From assembly GCA_903917705.1 (NCBI GenBank), contig CAIXBQ010000103.1, positions 36,889 through 100,888 on the forward strand: 64,000 nt of DNA, given 5' to 3'. Below are positions 31,205-54,678 of the stretch, piece by piece. Origin of the DNA: an uncultured Verrucomicrobia subdivision 3 bacterium (GTDB lineage Bacteria > Verrucomicrobiota > Verrucomicrobiia > Limisphaerales > UBA11358). Numbering within the stretch: the first letter of the stretch is position 1; every line of letters starts with the position of its first letter. The notes below the pieces were generated by a model. That model saw only the letters and a list, made by a program, of their open reading frames with translations. It was not told where the DNA came from and made no database searches. Both the position numbers and the translations under genes were made by a program.

Positions 31205-34200
31205 CTATTGACCGAGCAGGCGGAAGAACTGCAGGTGCTGGGCGGTGGTGATGGGCACGGTCACGGAGACATTCGCCCCGTTGGTGGTCAGGGGCAGCAC
31301 CAGGGTGGTCCACGGACCCAGCAGGCTATCCGCGCCCTGCACCTGGAAGGTCCCGGCATCCAGCTGCCACGAAAGTTGCATGCCCGAACGGGTGACCGAC
31401 GAAAGCGCCATGACTGGCTGGGGCGGCAATACCACGGCGCCGTTCACATACGCCGTTGAAAGCGCGTTCGCCAGCTTGTCGGCGACTTGCAGCCTGGCCA
31501 CGTTGTTGTCCAGGGTGAGGGTTGCGGAGCCGCTGGCATTGGTGGCGGTGGCAAACCGCAGCACGGCCACCTGATTGGTTCCGGCCGCCAGGGACGCCCC
31601 CGGGGACAAGGCCAGCGCCACCCCGACTTTTCCCGTCAACTGGTTGGAATTAACATTCAGCCGGCCGCTCGGTATGGCTGAGCCGAGGGAGACATTGAGC
31701 AGGGTCAACTGGCTGGGATTGTATCCCACGGTCATGCCGACGGCATTTTCATTGGTCGTGCAGACCAGTTGCACCGGCACATTGATGATCTGACCGCGCT
31801 GCGCCGGCAGGCTGGCGATCTGCAAGGTTCGGGCAGGAGTCTGGCCGCCATGGGGCACCGCCACCAGGTTTGGAGCGACGGGCAAGGTGACCAGGGTCAA
31901 GGGATCGAGCCCGAGCGCATAGCGTCCGGCCTGCACCCAGTCGGCCACGGTCAGGATGGCATCCGGCGCGTTGCGGGGAGCGCAATCCGCCCGCAACATT
32001 TCGTCGCTATTGGTCACCACATCGAGCCCCGCCACCATGCGGCCGACTTCCAGCCAGTCTTGAACACTGACCTGATGGTCGCCATTGGTGCGCGGATAAA
32101 CATCCGCGGCATATTCCGCCGGTATCAGCGAGATGCTCCCGCTTTGATAGATGGCAGGCATGCTGTCCAGATTGTTGTCCCAAACCTGCCGGCCCGTGGG
32201 GAGGTCGCCGAAGGTAAGATTGGCCGTTGTCGAATTGGTCACGGACAGGGCCAGGAAGGTCAGCCGGGCCACTTCCTGGGTACCGGCGGGGATCACCGCG
32301 CCGGTATCCAGCAGGATGGCAAAGCCCACAAAGCCGTTGTTCGTCTGCGAATCCACCTCCTGCAAATAGGCTCCCGCGGTCGCCAGTCCCGGCTGTACGC
32401 TTTGCAGCACCAGTTTGGCCGGGTCATATCCCACGCTGCCCATGAAAGCGTTTTCAAATCCCACGGCGGTCATCATGACCGGAATGGTGATCGTGTTGCC
32501 CGACATGGCGTTGGTGGAACCCAAAGCCAGCACAGTCTGCTGCAGCGTCAGCACCGCCGCGGCGCTGTTGGTCGTGGCATAGGCGTTGCTCACGACCACA
32601 TCGTAATTGCCGGCATCACCAATGGTCGCACTGGCCAGCGTCAAGTTGGTCGTGGTCGATCCGGAAATATTGGCGCCGTCAACCAGCGGGGTCCCGTTTT
32701 TCCGCCAATGATAAGTCAACGGCCCGGTGCCGGTGGCCGCCACCGTAAAGCCGGCGCTGTTGTAGCTTAACACGGACAGGCTTTGCGGCTGCTGGGTGAT
32801 GGTGGGCGGCAATACAACTGTCAGGGTCGCCGCACCACTGTTGGTCGCGCCGACCGGGTTGGTCACCAGCACGGCGTAATCCCCCGCCTGGGTCAACTGA
32901 ATATTGGGAAGAATCAGAGTCGAATTGGTGGCACCGATGAGGTTCGTCCCGTTCCAACTCCATTGATAGGTATACGGGGCTGTCCCGCCGGCCGTCACAT
33001 TAAATGTGGCGGTTGTTCCCAGAAGGTTGGTCTGGTTCTGCGGCTGGGCTGTGATGACTGGAAGCGCCAGCACGTTAAACGGATTGCTGGAGGCGGTATG
33101 ACCGCTGCCATCATTGGCGAGCAACACGACGTTCGTTGCGGGCTGGGTCAGGGTGATGCTGCCATTCCACGCGCCATTGACGAGGTTTCCGGTGTTGGTC
33201 GGCGACAGGGGAAGGTTTGCCGGCAATTGCAGGCTGACGTTGTCAACGTAAGCATCAATATAGCTGTAGGATTCATCCACCCAGAACATCACCCGCACTT
33301 TTTGTCCGGCATAAGCCGTCAGGTTGTAGTTCGTTTGCACCCAGTTGCCCAGCAAGACATTGCCGGGGCTGGTCGTGAACGCCGTGGCCAGAACAGTGTT
33401 GTTCGTATTACATATCCGCACCTGAAATCCCTGAAAGGAATTGAATGAACTGTAATAATTGCGCACGCAATGCGCCCAATTCAAGGTCGCCACAGAGACC
33501 CCGGACGGAATGGTGACGTCCTGATACATATAAAAAACGCCGGAGCCGGTTTCCTGGCCCAAGGCGCTGAAGCTTCCGGCGAAGGGCGCCAGCGCCCCGC
33601 TTGCGCCGGGCGGAATCACCGTTCCGTTGTTGGTGATGAATTTTCCATAGGTGCTGTTCACCAGCGTCCAATTGGTGAGGGTGCCCGTTTCAAATCCACC
33701 GTTCAGAATGGCCCCGCTATTGGTTATCACGCCGGCACTCGAAGCCTGCAATGAAAGAGCACCGGTGTAATTGGTGACAGTCACGTTATTGACATTCTGT
33801 GCCGTGAGGGTGACGCCGAACGGCTGGCTGGCAGCCTGCGGTGAGGCAATCGGGGACCAGGCAAAATGATCCAGGGTCAAGAGCACTGCAAGGGCGGCGT
33901 TGGAACTGACCGTCGAGCCATAGGCATTGGTCACGGAAACAGCGTAATTGCCAGCTTGCGACATTTGCAAATTGGTCAGCGTCAGCGTGGCGTTCGTGGC
34001 ATCGGCAATATCGGTCCCGTTGCAATTCCATTGATAGGTGAACGGCTTCGAGCCGGTGGCGGTCACGGTAAAAGACGCGGTGCCGCCGGCCTGAACCGAC
34101 TGATTGGCAGGCTGGGCCGCAATGGTTGGCGGAACCGTTAAAACAGTCAGGATCGCATTGGTGCTGTTGGTCTGGCCGTAGCCATTCGAGATGAAAGCGG

Positions 34201-35503
34201 CGTAGGCACCCGCATCCGTTGGTTGCACATTGTTCAATGTCAGCGTCGCATTGGTCGCGTTGTCCAGATTCGTCCCATTGATGCTCCATTGATAGCTCAT
34301 CGGCTGCGAACCGTAGGCGCCCACGGTGAAGGCGGTCGCATAACCCGCCACCACCGCCTGGCTAACCGGCTGGCTCGTGATCGAGGGCGGCGTCGCAGGG
34401 AAGATAGTGGTGTTGAACAAGACCGAAAGCGTATTGGCTCCATAGTTCCCACTGATCAAATCCACCCGGCCATCGCCATTCACATCCGCAGCCGCTACGG
34501 TTCCAGGAGCGCTGCCCACGCTTACCGTAGCCGCCAGCCCGAAGGCGCCACTCCCGTCGTTCGTCATCACCGAGAGCGTATTAGTGGTTCCCACATTTGC
34601 GGTGATGAAATCCAGCTTGCCATCCCCGTTTACATCCGCCGCCGCGATCCCGTTTGGCTGGGTGCCGACTGGATAGGAGCCCCGCAGCGCAAAACCGCCG
34701 GAGCCATTATTTGTGAACACATTGATCGTGGAGTTATTATTGTTTGCCGTGATCAAATCCACCTTGCCATCGCCATTGACATCCGCCGCCTTGACCGCAA
34801 CCGGGTAGCCTGCGGCATAGGTGCCACTTAAACCAAAAACGGCGTTGCCGTTATTCGTGAACACCGAAAGAGTGCTGTCACCACTGTTCGCGGAGATCAA
34901 ATCCATCTTGCCATCGCCGTTGACATCGGCCGCCGCGATCCCGCCGGGTGCGCTGCCTGCGCCCAGCGTCGCAGCAAGCAACCAGCCACCGTTCCCATTA
35001 TTCGTAAACACCGTGAGCGTGTTGGCGTCATAGTTCGCGGAGATCAAATCCATCCTGCCATCGCTATTGACATCTGCTGCCGCGACCCAACCTGGCCGGC
35101 TACCTGATCCGGCTGACAGTGTCGCCGCGAGCGCAAAGCCGCCGCTCCCGTTGTTGGTGAACACCGAGAAAGCGCTGCCCCCGGGGGCAGCGTTCCCGGC
35201 GAGTATATCCATTTTGCCATCGCCGTTGACATCCGCCGCTGTGAGTCCTGAGATTCCAATGCCTGAACTCAACGTTGCCGCCAGCACAAACCCACCACTG
35301 CCATTGTTCGTCAAAACCGACACAGTGTTGGCGGCATAGTTCGCGCACATTAAATCCATCTTCCCATCGCCGTTGATATCCCCCGACACGACCCCTTGAG
35401 GTTGGCTACCCACGCCCGGTGAGGATGAAAGTGTAAACGTGACTTGGGCCTGAAGTTGGAAAGTGACGACCCCAAAAATGATAAATGATAGAATTTTTTT
35501 CAT
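31205..35503 (-). CDS. 1432-aa secreted multidomain protein: 7 FG-GAP/VCBS repeats, 4 Ig-like modules, a central jelly-roll-like domain, 2 cohesin-like domains and a dockerin-like segment
   Basis: Signal peptide MKKILSFIIFGVVTFQLQA. Seven D(I/V)N(G/S)DG(K/R)(M/V/L)D motifs (aa ~25-365, nt ~34409-35431). Ig-like modules carry the Y(Q/H)W..NG...ATN.TLTL motif (aa 372-541 and 814-987). Cohesin-like GNTITIPVMM...VGYDPAKLVL (aa 990-1127) and GQIINVPVQL...VGYNPSQLTL (aa 1225-1358). Confidence 0.8.
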   Translation of the reverse strand: MKKILSFIIFGVVTFQLQAQVTFTLSSSPGVGSQPQGVVSGDINGDGKMDLMCANYAANTVSVLTNNGSGGFVLAATLSSGIGISGLTAADVNGDGKMDILAGNAAPGGSAFSVFTNNGSGGFALAATLSAGSGSRPGWVAAADVNSDGRMDLISANYDANTLTVFTNNGNGGWLLAATLGAGSAPGGIAAADVNGDGKMDLISANSGDSTLSVFTNNGNAVFGLSGTYAAGYPVAVKAADVNGDGKVDLITANNNNSTINVFTNNGSGGFALRGSYPVGTQPNGIAAADVNGDGKLDFITANVGTTNTLSVMTNDGSGAFGLAATVSVGSAPGTVAAADVNGDGRVDLISGNYGANTLSVLFNTTIFPATPPSITSQPVSQAVVAGYATAFTVGAYGSQPMSYQWSINGTNLDNATNATLTLNNVQPTDAGAYAAFISNGYGQTNSTNAILTVLTVPPTIAAQPANQSVQAGGTASFTVTATGSKPFTYQWNCNGTDIADATNATLTLTNLQMSQAGNYAVSVTNAYGSTVSSNAALAVLLTLDHFAWSPIASPQAASQPFGVTLTAQNVNNVTVTNYTGALSLQASSAGVITNSGAILNGGFETGTLTNWTLVNSTYGKFITNNGTVIPPGASGALAPFAGSFSALGQETGSGVFYMYQDVTIPSGVSVATLNWAHCVRNYYSSFNSFQGFQVRICNTNNTVLATAFTTSPGNVLLGNWVQTNYNLTAYAGQKVRVMFWVDESYSYIDAYVDNVSLQLPANLPLSPTNTGNLVNGAWNGSITLTQPATNVVLLANDGSGHTASSNPFNVLALPVITAQPQNQTNLLGTTATFNVTAGGTAPYTYQWSWNGTNLIGATNSTLILPNIQLTQAGDYAVLVTNPVGATNSGAATLTVVLPPTITQQPQSLSVLSYNSAGFTVAATGTGPLTYHWRKNGTPLVDGANISGSTTTNLTLASATIGDAGNYDVVVSNAYATTNSAAAVLTLQQTVLALGSTNAMSGNTITIPVMMTAVGFENAFMGSVGYDPAKLVLQSVQPGLATAGAYLQEVDSQTNNGFVGFAILLDTGAVIPAGTQEVARLTFLALSVTNSTTANLTFGDLPTGRQVWDNNLDSMPAIYQSGSISLIPAEYAADVYPRTNGDHQVSVQDWLEVGRMVAGLDVVTNSDEMLRADCAPRNAPDAILTVADWVQAGRYALGLDPLTLVTLPVAPNLVAVPHGGQTPARTLQIASLPAQRGQIINVPVQLVCTTNENAVGMTVGYNPSQLTLLNVSLGSAIPSGRLNVNSNQLTGKVGVALALSPGASLAAGTNQVAVLRFATATNASGSATLTLDNNVARLQVADKLANALSTAYVNGAVVLPPQPVMALSSVTRSGMQLSWQLDAGTFQVQGADSLLGPWTTLVLPLTTNGANVSVTVPITTAQHLQFFRLLGQ

Positions 35504-42721: not shown

Positions 42722-43012
42722 ATGGCTGTGACAACTATTGAACAGTCTGTTCCCCTCGTCCGCCTGGACGAACTGCCGCCGCGCGTCTGCGCCGTGGTGC
42801 GCAGCGTGGCGACCGACGACGAGGACACGCAGCGCCTCAAGACGCTTGGCGTCTGCCTGGGCCGCCGCGTGGAGCTCGTCCGCGCGGGCGATCCCCTTAT
42901 TTTGAAAGTCTTCGGCTCGCGGCTCGGGATCTCCGCCGAGCTGGCCCGGCGCGTCCGGGTGGAAATCTGCCAGCCCGGCCACTGCGCCCTGCGCGAAAAC
43001 GACTGCGCATGA
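42722..43012 (+). CDS. feoA: FeoA-domain protein
   Basis: SH3-like FeoA pattern: VPLVRLDELPPRVCAVVRSV...LGVCLGRRVELVRAGDPLILKVFGSRLGI. 4-nt overlap with feoB. Confidence 0.85.
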   Translation: MAVTTIEQSVPLVRLDELPPRVCAVVRSVATDDEDTQRLKTLGVCLGRRVELVRAGDPLILKVFGSRLGISAELARRVRVEICQPGHCALRENDCA

Positions 43013-45039
43013 ACGGGTGTCATGAAACTCCGGCGGCGCCGGCCGGCGCCGCGCCGCATCATCACGCCTTCACCCTGGCGCTGGTCGGCAACCCGAACGC
43101 CGGCAAGACCACCCTGTTCAACGCGCTGACCGGCCTGCGCGCGAAGACCGCGAATTTCCCCGGCACCACCGTGGAGCGAAAAGTCGGCCGCCTGCACCTG
43201 GACCACCGGCAGATTGTGGTGGTGGACCTGCCGGGGCTGTACAGCCTGGACAGCAAATCCCCGGATGAGAAGCTGGCCGCCGACGCGCTGCAGGGGAAGC
43301 TGGAACACACCGCGCCCGACGCCGTGCTCGTGGTGGTGGACGCGACGAACTTGGAGCGAAACCTGTTCCTGGCGAGCCAGGTGCTGGAATTGAAATGTCC
43401 CGTGGTGGTGGCGCTGAACATGATGGACATGGCGCGGCGCGACGGCATCCGGATCGATGTGGCCAAACTGCGCGACGAACTCGGCTGCGTGGTGGTGCCC
43501 ATCGCCGCGCGCAACGGCGACGGCCTGGACGAGCTCAAGCAGGAGCTGAACCGCCTCGTCGCCGGCGCCATGCCGGAAGCGGTGGATCACGTGGACCCGA
43601 ACTGCGCCGGCTGCACAGGCTGCACGTTCCAGGCGCGCTACGAATGGACGGAGCAGATCTCCACGCGGGTCATGGATGCCGTCATCATCCAGCGCTCGGC
43701 GTGGACGGACCGGCTGGACGATATCTTCACGCATCCGGTCTTCGGCGTCATCGTGTTCAACCTGGTGATGATCGCGCTGTTCGGGCTGATCTTCTGGGCG
43801 GCAAAAATCCCGATGGAGCTGATCGACCACGGGTTCACGGGCATCGGCAAATGGGTCGGCGCGCACATGGCGCCGGGCGACTGGCAAAGCCTGCTGGTGG
43901 ACGGCGTCATCGGCGGCGTGGGCGGCATCCTGGTGTTCCTGCCGCAGATCTGCATCCTGTTTTTCGCGCTGTCGCTGCTGGAGGACACCGGCTACCTCTC
44001 CCGCGCCGCGTTTGTGATGGACAAGATCATGCGGAAGCTCGGCCTGCCGGGGAAGGCCTTCGTGCCGCTGCTCTCGGCGCACGCCTGCGCGATCCCCGCC
44101 ATCATGTCCGCGCGCGTCATCGAAAATCCGCGCGACCGGCTGCTGACGATCCTGATCACGCCGCTGATGACCTGCTCGGCGCGCATCCCGGTCTATGCCA
44201 TGGTCACGGCCCTGCTGTTCCCGCATTCGCCGCTGAAGGCGGCGCTCGTGTTCACCGCGGCCTACGGCGTGGGGGTGGCGGCGGCGCTGGGCGCGGCGCT
44301 CGTCTTCCGCCGCACCATCCTGCCGGGCGGCAGCAAGCCGCTGATGATCGAGCTGCCGCAATACCGCGTGCCCGGACTGCGGACGGCCCTGCTGCACACG
44401 TTCGACCGCGCGAAGATATTTGTGAAGCAGGCGGGGACGATCATCCTGGTGATCTCGCTGGTGCTGTGGGCCCTGGCGCATTATCCGAAATCCGCCGCGC
44501 CGGCGGCGGCGGCGAGCCTGACCGCGCAGGCCGCGCAGCTGGAAACGGCCGGCGACGCGAAGCAGGCGGCGAAACTCCAGGCAGAAGCCGGCCGGCTGAC
44601 CGCGCAGTCCTCGCTCCAGAATTCCTATGCCGGCAGGATCGGGCACTGGCTGGAGCCCGCCATCGCGCCGCTCGGCTACGACTGGCAGATCGGCATCGGC
44701 ATCGTAAGTTCGTTCGCGGCGCGCGAGGTGATCGTCTCGACGCTGGCGATCGTCTACGGCGTGGGCGACGACGGGAAGGGCGACGACCGCACCTCGCTTT
44801 ACGATTCGCTGCGGCGCGCCACCCGCACGGATGGCACGCCAATCTTCAACACCGCGACCTGCGCCAGCCTGCTGGTGTTTTACATCCTGGCGGCGCAATG
44901 CCTGTCCACCACGGCGGTGGTGCGGCGCGAGACCAACAGCTGGAAATGGGCGCTGTTCCAGATCGCCTACATGACGGGGCTGGCGTATGTGGCGGCGTTC
45001 CTGGTCTATCAGGGGCTGCGCCATTTCGGCCATCTGTAA
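43009..45039 (+). CDS. feoB: Ferrous iron transporter B
   Basis: G-domain LALVGNPNAGKTTLFNALTG, DLPGLYSL and a polytopic C-terminal gate domain. Confidence 0.93.
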   Translation: MNGCHETPAAPAGAAPHHHAFTLALVGNPNAGKTTLFNALTGLRAKTANFPGTTVERKVGRLHLDHRQIVVVDLPGLYSLDSKSPDEKLAADALQGKLEHTAPDAVLVVVDATNLERNLFLASQVLELKCPVVVALNMMDMARRDGIRIDVAKLRDELGCVVVPIAARNGDGLDELKQELNRLVAGAMPEAVDHVDPNCAGCTGCTFQARYEWTEQISTRVMDAVIIQRSAWTDRLDDIFTHPVFGVIVFNLVMIALFGLIFWAAKIPMELIDHGFTGIGKWVGAHMAPGDWQSLLVDGVIGGVGGILVFLPQICILFFALSLLEDTGYLSRAAFVMDKIMRKLGLPGKAFVPLLSAHACAIPAIMSARVIENPRDRLLTILITPLMTCSARIPVYAMVTALLFPHSPLKAALVFTAAYGVGVAAALGAALVFRRTILPGGSKPLMIELPQYRVPGLRTALLHTFDRAKIFVKQAGTIILVISLVLWALAHYPKSAAPAAAASLTAQAAQLETAGDAKQAAKLQAEAGRLTAQSSLQNSYAGRIGHWLEPAIAPLGYDWQIGIGIVSSFAAREVIVSTLAIVYGVGDDGKGDDRTSLYDSLRRATRTDGTPIFNTATCASLLVFYILAAQCLSTTAVVRRETNSWKWALFQIAYMTGLAYVAAFLVYQGLRHFGHL

Positions 45040-46308: not shown

Positions 46309-47160
46309 ATGCAACAAACGACTTTGACGCTGGGCCACTCGCCCGACCCCGATGATGCGTTCATGTTTTACGCGCTGGCGAAGGATCTCATTCCCACGCA
46401 CGGCTTCCGGTTCCAGCACATTTTGCAGGATATCCAGACGCTGAACGAACGCGCCACGCGCGGCGAACTCGACATCACCGCAGTCAGCATCCACGCCTAC
46501 GCCCATGTCTCCGGCCAATACGCGCTGCTCCCGAGCGGCGCCAGCATGGGCGACGGCTACGGCCCGATGCTGGTGGCCAGACAGAAGTTTTCCCGCGAGG
46601 AAATTGCTAAGAAAAAAATCGCGGTGCCCGGCACCATGACCAGCGCGTTTCTGGCGCTGCAGCTCTGGCTGGGCAAGCCGGCGAAGGAATTCAATTTTGT
46701 GGTGGTGCCGTTCGACCAGATTTTTGCCGCCGTGAAAAATGGCGCGGCGGAAATCGGCCTCATCATCCACGAAGGGCAGCTGACCTATCAAAACGAAGGG
46801 CTCGTCGTGTGCGAAGACCTGGGCGTCTGGTGGGGGAAACAAAACGACGGGCTGCCGCTGCCGCTCGGCGGGAACGTCATTCACAAAAAATTTGAGATCG
46901 CCACGCGCCGGCGGATCTCCGACACGCTGACCGCGAGCATCCAGTTCAGCCTGGACCACCGCCCGGAAGCCGTGCAGCATGCGCTGCAATACGCCCGCGA
47001 CATGGGGCGCGACCTCGCGGACAAGTTCGTGGGGATGTACGTCAACCACTGGACGCTCGATTACGGCGACAAGGGCCGCGAGAGCATCCGCCGTTTTCTC
47101 GGCCAGGCGTTTGAGCGCGGGCTGATCCCGCACCGGCAGGAACTGGAGTTTGTCGTTTAG
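46309..47160 (+). CDS. mqnD: MqnA/MqnD-family protein, likely 1,4-dihydroxy-6-naphthoate synthase (futalosine pathway)
   Basis: LGHSPDPDDAFMFYAL, GLIIHEGQLTY and DLGVWWGKQNDGLPLPLG follow the MqnD pattern as I recall it. Confidence 0.65.
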   Translation: MQQTTLTLGHSPDPDDAFMFYALAKDLIPTHGFRFQHILQDIQTLNERATRGELDITAVSIHAYAHVSGQYALLPSGASMGDGYGPMLVARQKFSREEIAKKKIAVPGTMTSAFLALQLWLGKPAKEFNFVVVPFDQIFAAVKNGAAEIGLIIHEGQLTYQNEGLVVCEDLGVWWGKQNDGLPLPLGGNVIHKKFEIATRRRISDTLTASIQFSLDHRPEAVQHALQYARDMGRDLADKFVGMYVNHWTLDYGDKGRESIRRFLGQAFERGLIPHRQELEFVV

Positions 47161-48080
47161 AAATCCAGCTTTTCACCCTTGGGCTTCAAGCTGAAGAGGT
47201 AGGCGGCCAGGTCGCTCATTTCGGCGTCATTGATGATGGGATCCCACTTGGGCATGAAATGCGGCGGTTCGGGGCCGTTTGGATTCATGCGCGGAATGAC
47301 GCGCTCGCCGCGCTTGACGAAGGCAATCAGCTCGGCCTGGTTGTAGCCGTCGGCCACATAGACCAGGCTGGGAACCTGCTCCGCGGTCTTGGCGTTGGGG
47401 TTGGTCACGCCGCCTTTGCCGTCCTCGCCGTGACATTGAAAACAGCCGTATTTTTTGAAAACCGCATGGCCGCGTTCCGCCGGCGTCATTTTGGCCAGGT
47501 CGGCGGCGGAAGGCGAATTGCCGCTGATGGCGGCGCGGGCGGCCTTCATGTCGGCTTCGGAAACGGGACTGCCCTGGTTGCCCCAGGCGGCGCGGATGTA
47601 AGTCAGCACGGCGGCCAGATCGGCGTCGGACAACCCCGCGCCCATCGGCGCCATCGAAAGGTTCCATTCGTGACCCGCCACTTGAATCGGCCCGTTGAGG
47701 CCGGCGAGCGGCACCCGGGCTAGGGAATTGACATCCCGGGTGACCCATTCGGAAGCCGCGAGCGGCGGAGCCTGGCCGGGTTTGCCGAGGCCATCGCCGC
47801 CGTGGCAGATGCCGCAGACGCTGTCATACACCGACTTGCCCCGCGCGGCCAGCGCGGCCGCGCCGGATTTAGGCTGATAAAACGCCAGGGTTTCGGCGGA
47901 GGAATAGGGCGCAAAAACCTGCCGGTCAAACCAGCCGCTGTGCCGGTCGAAGTACACCGCGCCAAGAAACACCAGCGCGAGGGTGAGGACGACCAGCCAA
48001 ACCGGAACCGGCGCGCTGGCGGCGGTCGGCTCGCCGTCGGGTGGACGACAGCAATTCGGCTCGTCATTCATGGCGGGCAA
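47157..48080 (-). CDS. Membrane-anchored dihaem c-type cytochrome
   Basis: N-terminal TM helix VPVWLVVLTLALVFLGAVYF and two CxxCH motifs (CGICH, CFQCH). Confidence 0.85.
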   Translation of the reverse strand: MPAMNDEPNCCRPPDGEPTAASAPVPVWLVVLTLALVFLGAVYFDRHSGWFDRQVFAPYSSAETLAFYQPKSGAAALAARGKSVYDSVCGICHGGDGLGKPGQAPPLAASEWVTRDVNSLARVPLAGLNGPIQVAGHEWNLSMAPMGAGLSDADLAAVLTYIRAAWGNQGSPVSEADMKAARAAISGNSPSAADLAKMTPAERGHAVFKKYGCFQCHGEDGKGGVTNPNAKTAEQVPSLVYVADGYNQAELIAFVKRGERVIPRMNPNGPEPPHFMPKWDPIINDAEMSDLAAYLFSLKPKGEKLDF

Positions 48081-48125
48081 GGCGGCAACAGCCGGAACGG
48101 AAAAATCCCGGCGGACATCCGCTGA

Positions 48126-48611
48126 TCATTTGGCGTCGTATTGATCGCGGACTTTTTTGATGGCGGCTTCAGCGGTGGCCTTGTCTTCGGCGCTGGCTTT
48201 GGCGAGCTTCTCGTCGAGCTTCGTTTTTTTGCGGACGCTCGAGTCATAGACGAGGAACTCGTAAATCTTCTTGCCGTCGGAGCTGGAGATGCCGGAGCCG
48301 GGTTTGTGCATCATCCGCTTGACGTAGCGCGACCATTCGTCGGGCAGGACGTAATCGGAGTTGATGGGGCGGCTCAGCTTGTGGCATTGCGTGCATTTCT
48401 GGCTGAACAGCTCGTAATTATCCTTCAGCGCTTCCGGATACTTGGAGATGTCAATCGTGGCGGGGCCTTTTTCAAACGCATCAAGGCGCGCCTTGGTGGC
48501 GGCGTCAACCGGGTCTTCGGCGCGAGCCGCCCCCGCCCCGGTCAGGGCGAGGGCGGTCGCGGCGAACAACAAGGCACGGACGGAAACAGAGAGGTTCATT
48601 TTCATGATCAC
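48126..48611 (-). CDS. Periplasmic monohaem c-type cytochrome
   Basis: Signal peptide ending ..LTGAGAARA and CTQCH at nt 48381-48395. Confidence 0.75.
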   Translation of the reverse strand: MIMKMNLSVSVRALLFAATALALTGAGAARAEDPVDAATKARLDAFEKGPATIDISKYPEALKDNYELFSQKCTQCHKLSRPINSDYVLPDEWSRYVKRMMHKPGSGISSSDGKKIYEFLVYDSSVRKKTKLDEKLAKASAEDKATAEAAIKKVRDQYDAK

Positions 48612-48633
48612 TTAATGACGGTTTAAATTTGTT

Positions 48634-49947
48634 TTAGAATCCGTAGGAGAGCTGGAATATCAGCTGGTTGGCCGGCACATTCAAATCGTTGCTGTGCAGC
48701 CATTCGTAATCGCCCTCAAACAACAGCGTGTTGGTGAGGTAATAGACATAGCCAAAAGTGTAGCGCCGGGTGCTGGTGCCCTGGCCGTTGCTTTCCTTGT
48801 CATAGCGGCCGATCAACTCGACGTCGCTGATGACCGGCAGGTCGAGGTTGAGTCCGGCCAGCTTGTAACCGGCCTGCGCCCAGACGGCCCACGGATGAAC
48901 CGTGCCCGCGTCGGTGGTGCCAAACCAGGAATTGATGAATTCACCCTTGAGTTCAAAGCTCGGCCCGATGTGCAGCGAGGCATCCAGCACGCCGGCGGAC
49001 CAGTAATGATCGCCCGCGTCATCCCAGACGCCGCTCTGGCCGGAGATGCCGATTTCCAGGTCTTTGTGCGCCCCGCCCCACGGAATGAACCAGCCGATGC
49101 GCCCGCCGCCGCTGGGCGCGGAATGGAGGTTGCCGGTGGATCCGTCGGACAGCAGCCCCACGTTGCCGCCCAGGTCCAGGCTGCCGGCCAGGGCCGTGTT
49201 ATCAATGGAACTGGGGCCGTTCGCGCCATAGACGGAATAGGTGATCATCTGGCCGGAATCGCCGATCGCAAACGCGCCGCGCAGTTGCGCGCCGGCGCCG
49301 GCCCCCGGCAAAAATTCGCGGCCGAGCGGATCATCGGGAATCTTGTTCAACATGCCGGCTGCGCGCTCGCTGTAAGTGCCCAGGGGAAGCAGCATGTAGC
49401 CGCCGACGAACGTCATATAGTCGTTCATCACGTAATCCAATTGCGCGAAGCTGATGCCCACCGAGGTGGAACTGCTGTTTTCATGGCCGGAAACCGAGCC
49501 ATTATTCAGCATCATGTCAAAACCGGCCTCGAACAAAACATTGTCATTCGCCCGGTAGAGGAAAATCGGCGCGAAATCCGCCAGCAGGAAACCGTTGCGG
49601 TGCGGGTTGCCGTTGGGGTCCGTGGCGCCGCCGAACGTCTTGGCGTATTGAACCTCGGCATCGCCGACCATGGTGAAATTATGCAGCGCATTGCGGATGG
49701 TCGAGGAAGACTGCGCCTGCACGGCGGCGTCGGTCTTCTGGACCTGGGTCTGCGTGTCGCCGAGCTGCTGCTGCAGCTTTTGAATCTGCTGCTGGTCCTG
49801 GTCGTGGGCCTGCTGCAACTGCTGAACCACATTCTTCAGCGCGTTAAAATCCTCGTCGCTGACGGCGGCGGAGGAGCGTGGGGAGGCGGACAGGCCCAGC
49901 ACGCAGGTGGCGGCGGTCGTTCCGAGGAAGCGGGAATTGATTTTCAT
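48634..49947 (-). CDS. Outer-membrane porin with N-terminal coiled-coil (OprO/P-like architecture)
   Basis: Signal peptide, Q-rich coiled coil ALKNVVQQLQQAHDQDQQQIQKLQQQLGDTQTQVQ, beta-strand-rich body and a C-terminal FQLSYGF. No CxxCH motif. Confidence 0.75.
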   Translation of the reverse strand: MKINSRFLGTTAATCVLGLSASPRSSAAVSDEDFNALKNVVQQLQQAHDQDQQQIQKLQQQLGDTQTQVQKTDAAVQAQSSSTIRNALHNFTMVGDAEVQYAKTFGGATDPNGNPHRNGFLLADFAPIFLYRANDNVLFEAGFDMMLNNGSVSGHENSSSTSVGISFAQLDYVMNDYMTFVGGYMLLPLGTYSERAAGMLNKIPDDPLGREFLPGAGAGAQLRGAFAIGDSGQMITYSVYGANGPSSIDNTALAGSLDLGGNVGLLSDGSTGNLHSAPSGGGRIGWFIPWGGAHKDLEIGISGQSGVWDDAGDHYWSAGVLDASLHIGPSFELKGEFINSWFGTTDAGTVHPWAVWAQAGYKLAGLNLDLPVISDVELIGRYDKESNGQGTSTRRYTFGYVYYLTNTLLFEGDYEWLHSNDLNVPANQLIFQLSYGF

Positions 49948-49988
49948 TTATGGCAGGATAAAGGTTGGTTGATTGGTGGAACGGGGGC

Positions 49989-50318
49989 TTAGCCGCCGGC
50001 TTCTTCCTTCAGATATTTCAAAATCTCCTTCGCCTGCTTCGCGGGCAAATTGGCGCGCACCCGCATGTGGGTGATCAGCGTCTGCCACTGGGCGGAATTA
50101 AACTCCGTGGGATACCGCTCCTGATGGCAGCGGTTGCAATTGATCGCGTAAAGCTCGGAACCGGTCAGTTTCTTTTTAGCCGGCCCGGTCTTTTTGGCCG
50201 CGGCCGCGGGTTCGGCGGCCAGCAGGGTGGCGGCGAGCCCGCCGAGGAGGGCGGCCGCGAGGATGAGCCGGCCGGCCGGGCGGATGACGATATTGGAGAA
50301 GCACCGGATGGTTTTCAT
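49989..50318 (-). CDS. Small secreted monohaem c-type cytochrome
   Basis: Signal peptide and CNRCH at nt 50124-50138. Shares a CxxCH...W....HM pattern with the 161-aa cytochrome. Confidence 0.75.
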   Translation of the reverse strand: MKTIRCFSNIVIRPAGRLILAAALLGGLAATLLAAEPAAAAKKTGPAKKKLTGSELYAINCNRCHQERYPTEFNSAQWQTLITHMRVRANLPAKQAKEILKYLKEEAGG

Positions 50319-50635
50319 TTTATTATAGTTTTCTTAACTAGAAGTTATAATGGTGCAGGTTGGCAGAAAGGCCAAACATATTTTGCTAAATTAATGTACA
50401 AATATTGCTAATCCCGTCCGGGCGGCCGGGCCGGGGGCGGCTGCAAGATTGGGATTGCCACGGGCGCATTCTCCGGTATTATCACCGGCTCGCTGCGACT
50501 GGCGACAGTGGCGGCGGATAACGGCCTTATGCCGGTGCCTTCGAGTGGAGGCGGGCGGGCCATAACAACACCAAACCATAATCCCGTGTTCCGCGGGATG
50601 CTTCGGGCAGCCGGAGTTTTAACCAAAGGAAAATT

Positions 50636-52636: not shown

Positions 52637-53074
52637 TCACGGTTTGCCGGCTTCCTTGGTGTAGGCGCTGAGCAGCTTGATATTGGCCTGCTTGGCCAGG
52701 TCCATCACGCTGACAATCTTGCCCCAGGGCGCCTGCTTGTCGGCGCGCACGGCCAGCTTCACTTCCTGACCGGTGGCCCGCGCCTTCTCGGCCTGGATGA
52801 GCAGCTGGTTGCGCAACTGCTCCAGGCTCATGGGCGTGCCGTCCGGACCAAACCGGAAGACGCCGTTGGCCTCGATGCTCACGACCATGGGCGGGTTTTC
52901 GTTGGCGCCGGACTTGAGGGCCTGGGTGGATTCGGGCAGCGCCAGCCGCAGCGACGGCTGCTGCTTGAACGTGGTGGTGACCAGCAGGAAGATCACCAGC
53001 ACGATGAGCACGTCGATCAGCGCCACGATGATGACGGCGGGCGCGGTGCGGCGTTTATGGACGAGAAACTTCAT
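52637..53074 (-). CDS. exbD: ExbD/TolR biopolymer transport protein
   Basis: Start taken at MKFLVHKRR. TM helix AVIIVALIDVLIVLVIFLLV followed by a periplasmic domain. Confidence 0.85.
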   Translation of the reverse strand: MKFLVHKRRTAPAVIIVALIDVLIVLVIFLLVTTTFKQQPSLRLALPESTQALKSGANENPPMVVSIEANGVFRFGPDGTPMSLEQLRNQLLIQAEKARATGQEVKLAVRADKQAPWGKIVSVMDLAKQANIKLLSAYTKEAGKP

Positions 53075-53664
53075 TTCCGTTCGCGGTATTGGCGGCGGAT
53101 GAATTCGTCGCACAAGGTTTCGAGCTCAACGGCGAGGACTTCGACCTTCTTGCTGTAGTAGCTCCAGAAGATGAGCGAGGGGATGGCGATGAGCAGGCCG
53201 ATGAGCGTGGCGTTCAGGATGAGGGCGATGCCCTTGGCCAGCCGCGCGGCGTCGCTCAACCCGCTTTGCCCGATGTCGCCGAACAGCGTCATCATGCCGG
53301 CGATGGTGCCGACGAGGCCGAGCAGCGGGGCGATGCCGACGATGATCTCCAGCACGACGAGGCCGCGCTCGAGCCGGACGATCTCATGGCGCGCGGCGGT
53401 TTCGAGCGAGTCCACGTTGTCGGCCTTGGGCCAGTCGAGATGGTCGGCGGCGAGCAGCAGGAGGCGGCCGAGGGGCGAGGCGTGATTCTGGCAGAGCTGG
53501 CGCAGGGCCTTGACGTCGTCCGCCGTGCGGCAGCCGGCGAGCGAACCGGCGATGGCCGGGGGCACGACCTTATTCCAGCGCAGCATCCAGCCGCGCCAGA
53601 GGACCACGCCCAGGCCGACCACGGAGGTCAGCGCGAGCAACGTATATACGACGGTAGTTTCCAT
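53071..53664 (-). CDS. exbB: MotA/TolQ/ExbB proton-channel protein
   Basis: Three TM helices. GIAPLLGLVGTIAGMM and ALILNATLIGLLIAIPSLIFW. Confidence 0.88.
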   Translation of the reverse strand: METTVVYTLLALTSVVGLGVVLWRGWMLRWNKVVPPAIAGSLAGCRTADDVKALRQLCQNHASPLGRLLLLAADHLDWPKADNVDSLETAARHEIVRLERGLVVLEIIVGIAPLLGLVGTIAGMMTLFGDIGQSGLSDAARLAKGIALILNATLIGLLIAIPSLIFWSYYSKKVEVLAVELETLCDEFIRRQYRERK

Positions 53665-53685
53665 AAATGCTTGGCCGGAGCCGGT

Positions 53686-54678
53686 TCAATAATAGTAAAA
53701 GGTGAAGGTGATTTCCCGAAAATTCGCGCCGATCATCCGCCGCATGTCGTCCGGCCATTTCTCAAAGGGCGCGGATTGCTGGATGGCTTCGGAGCAGACG
53801 TAGCCGAGCATTTCGCCGACGGTGTTTTCAAGGGTGTTCATCTCCTCGACGGAGCCGTCATATTTCAGCTTGAACCGCAGGATGACCTTGCCGGTGCGGT
53901 CCTGCGCGAAGTGCCGGCTGTCGAGCAGGTCATACCAGTGCTGGGTCACGGCCTCGACAATCTTCCGGTCGTAATCGCCGAACGCGGTGGCCTTGGCATC
54001 GAGCGAGGACCAGACCGCGTGCCGCCGCACGCCGCCGTCCTGCCGCATCTGCTGGCCGGGGAGCGATGGCTGCGCCATCGCCTCCTTCAACGTGCGCGGC
54101 CGCTTGGGCGCCGGCGGGTTCGGCGCCGGCTGCGGCTGCGACTGGCTGGCGGCGGTGCCGTCCGCCGGCTTGGACAGCTTCAAATCGCCGAGGTTCATCG
54201 CGGAGGAGAGATGCACGGGCTCGGCGGGCTTGACCTCCGGCGCGGGCTGCGGCGGCGGCGGGGTGGGCTGGAGTTTCGGCAGGCGCGGCACGTCCTCGGT
54301 CTTGGGCACGTCCCGCTGCTTGCCGGTCAGCTTGGGCTGGTTCGAGTCAACGGTGGTGTCGGGATTGGCGGCGCGGGAATTCTTATTGGAATAATACCGG
54401 GTCTGTTTGGGCGCGTCGGTTTCGGCGTGGGAGACGTCCACGAACGTGGCGGGTTCGGCGGTCTGGGCCACGAGCATGGTGGGCGCCGGCTGCTTCTCCG
54501 CCCGGTGCAGCCACGCGGGCGGATGGAGCTGCTGCCACCAGCCGAATTTCACGCCGGCTTCATAGCCCCCATAGGCGCCCAGATGCACGAGCAGCGACAG
54601 TAATAGCGCCGCCGTCAGCCGCCCGATTTCGAGCCGGCTGAAGCGCAGGGAACCAAGCCCGGTGTCATCGCGAACCAT
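53686..54678 (-). CDS. TonB-like energy transducer (TM anchor, Pro-rich spacer, C-terminal domain)
   Basis: TM helix LTAALLLSLLVHLGAYGG, Pro-rich KLQPTPPPPQPAPEVKPAEP / QPQPAPNPPAPKRP, and operon position before exbB-exbD. Confidence 0.65.
   Translation of the reverse strand: MVRDDTGLGSLRFSRLEIGRLTAALLLSLLVHLGAYGGYEAGVKFGWWQQLHPPAWLHRAEKQPAPTMLVAQTAEPATFVDVSHAETDAPKQTRYYSNKNSRAANPDTTVDSNQPKLTGKQRDVPKTEDVPRLPKLQPTPPPPQPAPEVKPAEPVHLSSAMNLGDLKLSKPADGTAASQSQPQPAPNPPAPKRPRTLKEAMAQPSLPGQQMRQDGGVRRHAVWSSLDAKATAFGDYDRKIVEAVTQHWYDLLDSRHFAQDRTGKVILRFKLKYDGSVEEMNTLENTVGEMLGYVCSEAIQQSAPFEKWPDDMRRMIGANFREITFTFYYY

Follow-up and report, generated by a model that had tools for sequence, protein, structure and literature searches.

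The outer-membrane systems closest to the locus considered here are porins joined to c-type cytochromes. Cyc2, as described by Keffer et al. (PMC8406198), is a porin of 16 strands that closely resembles OprO/OprP in structure, and its fused N-terminal monohaem domain is thought to plug the periplasmic mouth of the barrel, so that Fe2+ must enter the pore; its signature consists of AxPxFAR[QK][TY] five amino acids before the CxxCH haem motif and PxL four amino acids after it. Cyc572 of Leptospirillum is a second fused iron-oxidase cytochrome-porin, with an electronegative pore (PMC10654088). In the Verrucomicrobial porin-multihaem clusters of the Pcc type, a porin of at least 20 strands is combined with a periplasmic cytochrome of about eight haems (He et al. 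2017, PMC5615132). Here, we describe an operon in a 64,000-nucleotide stretch of DNA (hereafter, the window) from an uncultured Verrucomicrobia subdivision 3 bacterium (contig CAIXBQ010000103.1, positions 36,889 to 100,888), in which a porin gene is preceded by a gene for a small monohaem cytochrome, cytA, and followed by genes for a second monohaem cytochrome, cytB, and a dihaem cytochrome, cytC (Table 1). A limited literature search found no description of this module, returning only Cyc2, the Mto and Pcc systems and the different Verrucomicrobial porin-multihaem cluster. An earlier interpretation made from the letters of the window alone (the sequence-only reading) had taken the operon for a candidate trans-envelope electron conduit. 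The comparisons below support cytA and the porin as a functional unit with respiratory wiring and point, tentatively, to a split counterpart of Cyc2, in which transfer across the envelope and Fe(II) as the donor would be the hypothetical elements.

The pairing of cytA with the porin is far beyond chance. More than 1674 close homologues of the porin were found, all of them annotated as hypothetical and most as unnamed metagenome proteins; every homologue with a taxon label belongs to the Verrucomicrobiota, and 201 matches fall in GTDB species genomes. Gene neighbourhoods were compared at 85 loci, comprising 80 from different GTDB species genomes, essentially all labelled as Limisphaerales or subdivision 3 metagenome-assembled genomes from peat, bog, soil and humic lakes, and five others. 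At all 85 loci, the gene immediately 5' of the porin on the same strand is a cytA homologue with an intact CxxCH, and the open reading frame (ORF) directly 3' of the porin contains at least one CxxCH at 78 of them.

The same pairing was found in much more distant relatives. An exhaustive profile search with the porin yielded at least 1000 cluster representatives (50% identity) at E<=1e-3, including 122 at E<=1e-30. Among the best 150 of these representatives, which were searched for fusions, three proteins (P0367, P0389 and P0325) are single chains in which a class I cytochrome c domain at the N-terminus is connected through linkers and a coiled coil to the barrel, and a further search from P0367 recovered about a dozen fused cytochrome-porins of 511-615 aa. 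The subfamily built from P0367 (alignment A5) is clearly homologous to the window porin over both stalk and barrel (hhalign E 6e-53, 29% identity), and the two have in common the N-terminal motif VS(R/D)E(E/D)(Y/F)..LK and the loop W(I/L)NK(L/I)PDDPL. In a sample of 80 metagenome loci of this subfamily, collected with W(L/I)NK(I/L)PDDPL as the scan pattern, the gene immediately 3' of the porin is a cytA homologue (E 1e-15 to 1e-24) at 67 of the 72 assessable loci, and a class I cytochrome is encoded upstream of the porin or fused to it at 41 of 54. Five distant contexts were annotated gene by gene. All five have a cytA homologue of about 100 aa with a lipobox directly 3' of the porin, two of them contain fused cytochrome-porins, a third has a separate class I cytochrome upstream, a fourth ends an operon resembling alternative complex III (multihaem cytochrome, Fer4_11, NrfD, monohaem cytochrome), and the fifth adjoins genes for an FMN_bind membrane protein and a reductase; across the distant cytA homologues as a whole, about half have a lipobox. 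The one taxonomic label in the subfamily is that of a planctomycete bin. As the pairing persists over about 70% sequence divergence, the invariant unit is the porin plus cytA, whichever gene comes first; in most cases a second cytochrome is encoded alongside, and frequently a complex that oxidises quinol. The cytochrome-porin linkage proposed from the window is thus borne out, and coincidental placement is excluded by its recurrence at more than 150 loci and by the natural fusions. One candidate, P0287, had the appearance of a porin-cytB fusion and was rejected as a frameshifted read-through.

The porin itself was modelled with AlphaFold2 (AF2) from 24 homologues (predicted local distance difference test score, pLDDT, 66). 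The model has an N-terminal helix followed by 16 strands, the fifth and sixth of which are separated by a long loop. Together with the sequence, in which the only cysteine falls in the signal peptide, it supports a porin with an N-terminal coiled coil and no haem motif, as had been read from the window, and the C-terminus (...SYGF) is of the kind usual for outer-membrane proteins. In a Foldseek search with the model, OprP (2o4v) and OprO (4rjw) ranked first (E ~3e-11), followed by OmpC/F-type porins and OmpM1. Sequence searches with the porin against Pfam, NCBIfam and the PDB, including a profile search of PDB sequences, gave only coiled-coil noise. Conservation is unusually high for a porin (mean column identity 63%), and the L3-like loop is almost invariant; its hallmark, W(L/I)NK(I/L)PDDPL, is nearly invariant in alignment A1 and is kept in the 29%-identical subfamily. 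Acidic residues predominate strongly in the barrel (36 D+E against 15 K+R), and among the strand residues predicted from strand periodicity, not from coordinates, to face the lumen, 17 are acidic and 7 basic.

The structural matches raise the possibility that this is an ordinary phosphate or anion porin, an OprO/OprP orthologue found among cytochrome genes by chance. OprP and OprO are the best structural neighbours, and the Porin_O_P family (PF07396) is matched weakly by 9 of the 18 members of the distant subfamily A5 (best E 4.8e-8). The window porin has no Porin_O_P match at E<=1 and no sequence match to any solved porin, its predicted lumen is acidic where OprP and OprO have an Arg/Lys ladder, its N-terminal coiled coil and cytochrome gene context set it apart from both, and the neighbourhoods read showed neither pho nor pst genes. 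From the weak A5 matches and the fold, the family is placed as a remote branch of the OprO/OprP-like superfamily and not as a member of Porin_O_P. As this relation is remote, the barrel acidic rather than arginine-lined, and the cytochromes tightly linked in relatives at more than 150 loci and through fusions, orthology to phosphate porins with unlinked cytochromes does not describe the locus. We consider such an origin very improbable, and the synteny effectively refutes it. The porin instead appears to be a highly conserved, strongly acidic branch of 16-stranded OprO/OprP-like porins in the Planctomycetes-Verrucomicrobia-Chlamydiae (PVC) group, equipped with a periplasmic coiled-coil stalk.

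The strand number also separates the locus from the described multihaem conduits. The window resembles MtrAB, MtoAB and PioAB, Geobacter Pcc and the clusters of He et al. 2017 in having a porin gene beside genes for periplasmic c-type cytochromes, an arrangement proposed to link the respiratory chain with the cell surface. In those systems, barrels of 20-26 or more strands sheathe cytochromes of 8-10 haems, which form a continuous haem wire; MtrAB, MtoAB and PioAB have a barrel of about 26 strands and a decahaem partner, whereas the window encodes 16 strands and cytochromes with one, one and two haem motifs. A 16-stranded barrel with an internal loop and small one-haem cytochromes provides no wire through the membrane, and conduits of the Mtr/Mto/Pio or Pcc type, including those of He et al. 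2017, are ruled out on these grounds.

In CytA, the cytochrome of the pair, a signal peptide is followed by a linker rich in Lys (KKTGPAKKKLTG) and a three-helix haem domain of about 58 aa; this signal peptide, like that of CytB and the N-terminal transmembrane helix of CytC, was read directly from the sequence. The sequence around the haem site is KKKLTGSELYAINCNRCHQERYPTE. C61, C64, H65 and M85 are invariant (alignment A4), and the probable Met ligand falls within an invariant HMRVRA, so that the haem, as judged from this pattern, probably has His/Met ligation. The mature protein is net basic (13 K/R, 7 D/E) and the barrel acidic, and the two are therefore electrostatically complementary.

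Two further forms of fusion bear on what CytA does at the porin. In P0385 (E 8e-9) and P0384 (2e-4), the porin begins with a fused CytA-like domain in which other residues replace both haem cysteines (LYYQEYGRAMHRERL versus LYAINCNRCHQERY) and HM has lost its Met; such a domain either is a structural version of the cytochrome fold that binds no haem or holds haem non-covalently. Judged by eye alone, the N-terminal domain of P0340 resembles AMIN; the coiled coil and the same barrel follow it. This suggests that the stalked-porin scaffold accepts varied periplasmic heads: a cytochrome, a CytA-like domain and possibly AMIN.

From these features we favour, tentatively and at slightly less than an even chance, a split Cyc2-like cytochrome-porin unit that relays electrons between a solute in the pore and the inner-membrane chain. 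As in Cyc2, there is one haem per unit, the barrel is 16-stranded with OprO/OprP as nearest structures, and the cytochrome would be expected at the periplasmic side; as in Cyc572, the pore is predicted to be acidic. CytA and the porin would then be an obligate pair, forming a putative complex as the split counterpart of the fused Cyc2 and Cyc572. In the proposed relay, the four-gene operon would encode a periplasm-spanning chain ending at the outer-membrane porin. A small redox-active cation or complex, most likely Fe(II) or a metal- or humic-type donor, would enter the acidic pore, and CytA, at the periplasmic mouth or close to it, would exchange an electron with it; soluble CytB would carry the electron to membrane-anchored CytC, which would feed a terminal oxidase encoded elsewhere. 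At paralogous loci, the CytA-porin-CytB part would be wired to a Rieske/cytochrome b complex with an NAD(P)-binding iron-sulfur (FeS) flavoprotein subunit.

His/Met monohaem cytochromes are usually of high potential. In Acidithiobacillus, Cyc2 passes electrons to Cyc1 and on to the oxidase, with a bc1 branch alongside; the chain of A. ferrooxidans runs through a periplasmic or membrane dihaem cytochrome to an oxidase, or to a bc-type complex, and the downstream chain of the window resembles it. Because of this parallel in layout and of the invariant His and Met, inward flow from Fe(II) or from reduced organic-metal complexes may be favoured by analogy.

Several observations weigh against this relay or against its likeness to Cyc2. 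A barrel of 16 strands with an L3-like loop has no room for a cytochrome, and any redox chemistry would therefore require the solute to pass into or through the pore. Whereas Cyc2 is a fusion, CytA and the porin of the window are separate ORFs 41 nt apart, no fusion was found among the 120 closest porin homologues (302-478 aa), and the fusions that do exist are confined to distant relatives and use another cytochrome domain. The Cyc2 signature AxPxFAR[QK][TY] upstream of CxxCH is absent from CytA, and at the position of the Cyc2 PxL, four amino acids after CxxCH, a Pro stands at the right distance and is followed by T-E and not by x-L. The porin differs from Cyc2 in its coiled-coil stalk and in the high conservation of its barrel, Cyc2 barrels being poorly conserved. 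In the clade of the window, CytA has an ordinary signal peptide without a lipobox; if uncleaved, this signal would tether the protein to the inner and not to the outer membrane. The AF2 model of CytA is a three-helix bundle of low confidence (pLDDT 62), and Foldseek with this low-confidence model gave no meaningful structural neighbours. As the Cys-less fusions show, the fold of CytA is capable of a structural function at the porin that does not depend on haem. Finally, neither a Fur box nor other iron-linked regulation was found, the best Fur-box match in the 317-nt region upstream of the operon being 11/19, not above the window background, and the iron-transport genes feoAB, present near the operon in the window, are absent from the neighbourhoods of the four relatives read, recurring only in the contig that matches the window.

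The stalk and its varied heads lead to the main rival explanation. OmpM-type porins of diderm Firmicutes (PDB 8byt, 8bys) likewise have a periplasmic coiled-coil stalk and a 16-stranded barrel, and an OmpM-like stalked porin could tether or organise periplasmic cytochromes (CytA, CytB, the fused class I domains) that shuttle between inner-membrane complexes, with the pore serving as an ordinary diffusion channel. Besides the structural similarity to OmpM1 and general porins, this would fit the apparent AMIN-like, peptidoglycan-associated head that P0340 carries in place of a cytochrome, the Cys-less heads of P0385 and P0384, and the position of the fused cytochromes at the far end of long Pro/Ala linkers and a coiled coil, as would suit a tethered shuttle. 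The locus differs from OmpM in lacking an SLH or other N-terminal Pfam domain, in having a cytochrome as partner, and in the tip of the stalk, which is the VSDEDFNALK motif or, in relatives, a cytochrome or the apparently AMIN-like domain. Transfer from one inner-membrane complex to another has no obvious need of an outer-membrane barrel, conservation of the barrel and its L3-like loop greatly exceeds that of a generic diffusion porin, and the strongly acidic lumen suggests a specific cationic solute. We regard a tethering role as unlikely, while treating it as the strongest competitor of the split Cyc2-like unit.

Three architectures recur among the genes downstream of the porin. At 18 of the 80 GTDB loci, cytB is followed by an orthologue of dihaem cytC, as in the window. 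At another 20, the cytA-porin-cytB genes run directly into an operon for a 640-aa FeS-flavoprotein with an NAD(P)-binding fold, a Rieske protein, cytochrome b and a multihaem cytochrome c, and at 23 a dihaem cytochrome of about 270 aa stands downstream without cytB. The remaining loci have cytB before a contig end that hides the partner (10), cytB in another arrangement (3), or lack a same-strand cytochrome gene next to the porin on its downstream side (6). At least one genome, assembly CAWDPX, has two copies with different architectures (L016 and L022). The downstream partners are thus respiratory, whether CytB with CytC, the Rieske/cytochrome b operon or the ~270-aa dihaem cytochrome, in line with what had been proposed for the window.

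Several of these partners have features of their own. In L003 (7855-12928) and L086 (11832-16905), the 640-aa protein has GltD-like NAD(P)/FAD domains and several 4Fe-4S domains, and is followed by Rieske/cytochrome b and a 462-aa multihaem cytochrome; this operon presumably resembles the unusual Rieske/b complexes proposed for anammox planctomycetes. The ~270-aa dihaem cytochrome, seen in L033 (7406-8212) and 22 similar loci, joins an N-terminal CSRCH domain to a C-terminal class I domain, and the former (YLRDIQPIFMGSCSRCH…WLDY…) is reminiscent of planctomycete-type cytochrome domains. In the distant subfamily, a porin-cytA pair in L092 (6656-9500) is followed by an FMN_bind membrane protein and a Fer2/FAD_binding_6/NAD_binding_1 reductase, an arrangement that looks like an NAD(P)H-driven electron export system.

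CytC is a dihaem class I cytochrome with two matches to Cytochrom_C (PF00034; E 3.8e-25, 89.5 bits against a cut-off of 21.3) and an N-terminal transmembrane anchor. It is CcoP-like but scores far below the equivalog level (TIGR00782, 48.2 bits against a cut-off of 179.95); by this score it does not qualify as CcoP, subunit III of a cbb3 oxidase, and no ccoNO genes are present in the window. Its first domain resembles the cytochrome domain of the Ralstonia Cu-nitrite reductase (3e-20) and Thermus c552.

CytB is a periplasmic monohaem cytochrome with the motif KRMMHKPGSGIS and a charged C-terminal helix, and its CxxCH is kept in 54 of 55 orthologues. No Pfam or NCBIfam family matches it above threshold. 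Its weak matches include the PscC/cytochrome c-z family PF10643 (E 3.5e-4, 20.6 bits against a cut-off of 27.1) and the haem domain of green-sulfur-bacterial PscC (PDB 3a9f and 7uea, E ~2e-3), with which it has a KRM..PGSGIS motif in common. The CytB motif VKRMMHKPGSGISSSDGKKIY is closely similar to VKRMQGFPGSGISDDDAKTI of Chlorobaculum cytochrome c-z (PscC, PDB 3a9f); PscC is the donor to the green-sulfur reaction centre and an unexpected relative for a Verrucomicrobial periplasmic cytochrome. The two small cytochromes had also been suggested to be paralogues. A comparison of their profiles supports this weakly (hhalign probability 65%, E 6e-5, 20% identity over 56 columns), which would make them remote paralogues at best.

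The other family matches of CytA and CytB suggest a different role for the pore. CytB weakly matches SorB and the TorC C-terminal domain in NCBIfam, far below the curated cut-offs, and CytA matches SorB, the TorC C-terminal domain and DHC, all weakly and none above threshold in Pfam or NCBIfam. SorB is the cytochrome subunit of sulfite dehydrogenase, and both it and the TorC domain dock to molybdoenzymes. The porin could accordingly serve the uptake of a substrate for a periplasmic dehydrogenase encoded elsewhere, for example a sulfite-oxidising one, with CytA and CytB as its dedicated electron acceptors. We judge this improbable: all SorB and TorC matches lie far below their cut-offs, no catalytic enzyme is conserved beside the pair in about 160 loci of very different contexts, and sulfite, like other anions, would be poorly served by an acidic pore.

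The arrangement of the four genes in the window, including their strand, haem motifs and intergenic gaps of 41, 22 and 45 nt, was reproduced in the ORF listing. With the ATG starts of public gene callers, which lie 6 and 9 nt further in and were taken from a contig with a 100% identical porin and window-like gene order, the gaps become 41, 28 and 54 nt, and CytB and CytC become 159 and 304 aa long. All four ORFs have a strong coding signature (G+C content at third codon positions 0.78-0.81, at second positions 0.42-0.50), as do the other genes of the window, and no CxxCH was found among the other gene-like ORFs called across the 64 kb. Upstream, the operon is bounded by the divergent rpsB/tsf genes, and downstream by a convergent mqnA-like gene (VitK2_biosynth). 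With these boundaries the block is a self-contained operon, and the gaps and clean boundaries bear out the tight operon proposed earlier. A scan of the region upstream of cytA gave only consensus-level promoter-like matches, and the promoter and terminator scan was uninformative.

The proximity of feoAB, to which the sequence-only reading had drawn attention, is real at 2.1 kb, but a functional link to the operon was rejected on the evidence of the four relatives. An assimilatory role would have Fe(III) chelates enter through the porin, be reduced by CytA in the periplasm, and pass as Fe(II) into FeoAB. Both the neighbouring transporter genes and an acidic pore suited to metal cations would agree with this. 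The relatives examined do not have feoAB beside the module, the partners are respiratory complexes and not transporters, no Fur-box-like site precedes the operon, and His/Met monohaem cytochromes, being usually of high potential, are poor reductants of Fe(III). Iron assimilation by this route therefore seems to us quite improbable.

Table 1. Positions of the operon genes, their parts and neighbouring features in the window
Feature	Position	Strand	Description
cytA	49989-50318	-	109-aa ORF; CNRCH at residues 61-65 (50124-50138)
cytA, HMRVRA	50064-50069	-	invariant; contains probable Met ligand
porin	48634-49947	-	437-aa ORF; no CxxCH
porin, N-terminal motif	49834-49866	-	VSDEDFNALK; conserved
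porin, coiled coil	49714-49857	-	residues 31-78; Q-rich; AF2 helix
porin, barrel	48637-49680	-	residues 90-437; 16 strands in AF2 model
porin, long inter-strand loop	49300-49392	-	residues 186-216; LLPLGTYSERAAGMLNKIPDDPLGREFLPGA; L3 position
cytB	48126-48611	-	161-aa ORF; CTQCH at residues 73-77 (48381-48395)
cytC	47157-48080	-	307-aa ORF; CGICH at residues 89-93 (47802-47816), CFQCH at 213-217 (47430-47444)
cytC, transmembrane anchor	47949-48008	-	VPVWLVVLTLALVFLGAVYF; N-terminal
intergenic region	50319-50635	.	317 nt, common to divergent rpsB; presumed operon promoter region
feoA/feoB	42722-45039	+	
mqnA-like gene	46309-47160	+	VitK2_biosynth
ExbD, ExbB/MotA, TonB-like cluster	52637-54678	-	158 aa, 197 aa, 330 aa (Pro-rich)
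1432-aa ORF	31205-35503	-	signal-peptide-like start

The broadest form of the favoured split Cyc2-like reading would make cytA-porin a new and widespread outer-membrane redox module of the PVC group, an independently arisen two-component analogue of Cyc2 derived from OprO/P-like porins. It would give Limisphaerales of peat, soil and humic lakes, and related soil lineages, access to electrons from Fe(II) or reduced humic or metal complexes, passed to O2 through CytB and CytC or to a Rieske/cytochrome b complex that includes a subunit binding NAD(P). Taken with all its parts, this proposal is doubtful. In peatlands and humic lakes, the turnover of carbon and the release of methane are governed by iron and humic redox cycling. 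Verrucomicrobiota of subdivision 3 are abundant in these habitats, yet they are annotated as plain heterotrophs; if the proposal were true, the Limisphaerales, presumed polysaccharide degraders, would be unrecognised players in that cycling. Current marker-gene tools recognise the Cyc2, Mto/Pio/Mtr and Pcc types and, to our knowledge, would miss a split monohaem cytochrome and a porin without a Pfam family. Three marks delimit the module sharply, namely the gene pair, the WxNKxPDDPL loop and the CxRCH...HMR(V/I)RA cytochrome; it is also frequent, and small enough for heterologous expression. As a redox conduit, it would provide a new, easily searchable marker and a second independent case of porins recruiting single-haem cytochromes; as a tethering scaffold, it would represent a new principle of periplasmic organisation.

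Three features of the surrounding DNA were noted in addition. The mqnA-like gene, of the futalosine pathway to menaquinone, converges on cytC, and the ends of the two ORFs share 4 nt. Just past rpsB/tsf lies a cluster encoding ExbD, ExbB/MotA and a Pro-rich TonB-like protein, for which the Pfam calls come from the matching public contig. A large ORF with a signal-peptide-like start (1432 aa) stands further downstream of the operon, and the rest of the window consists mostly of nucleotide-sugar and glycosyltransferase genes.

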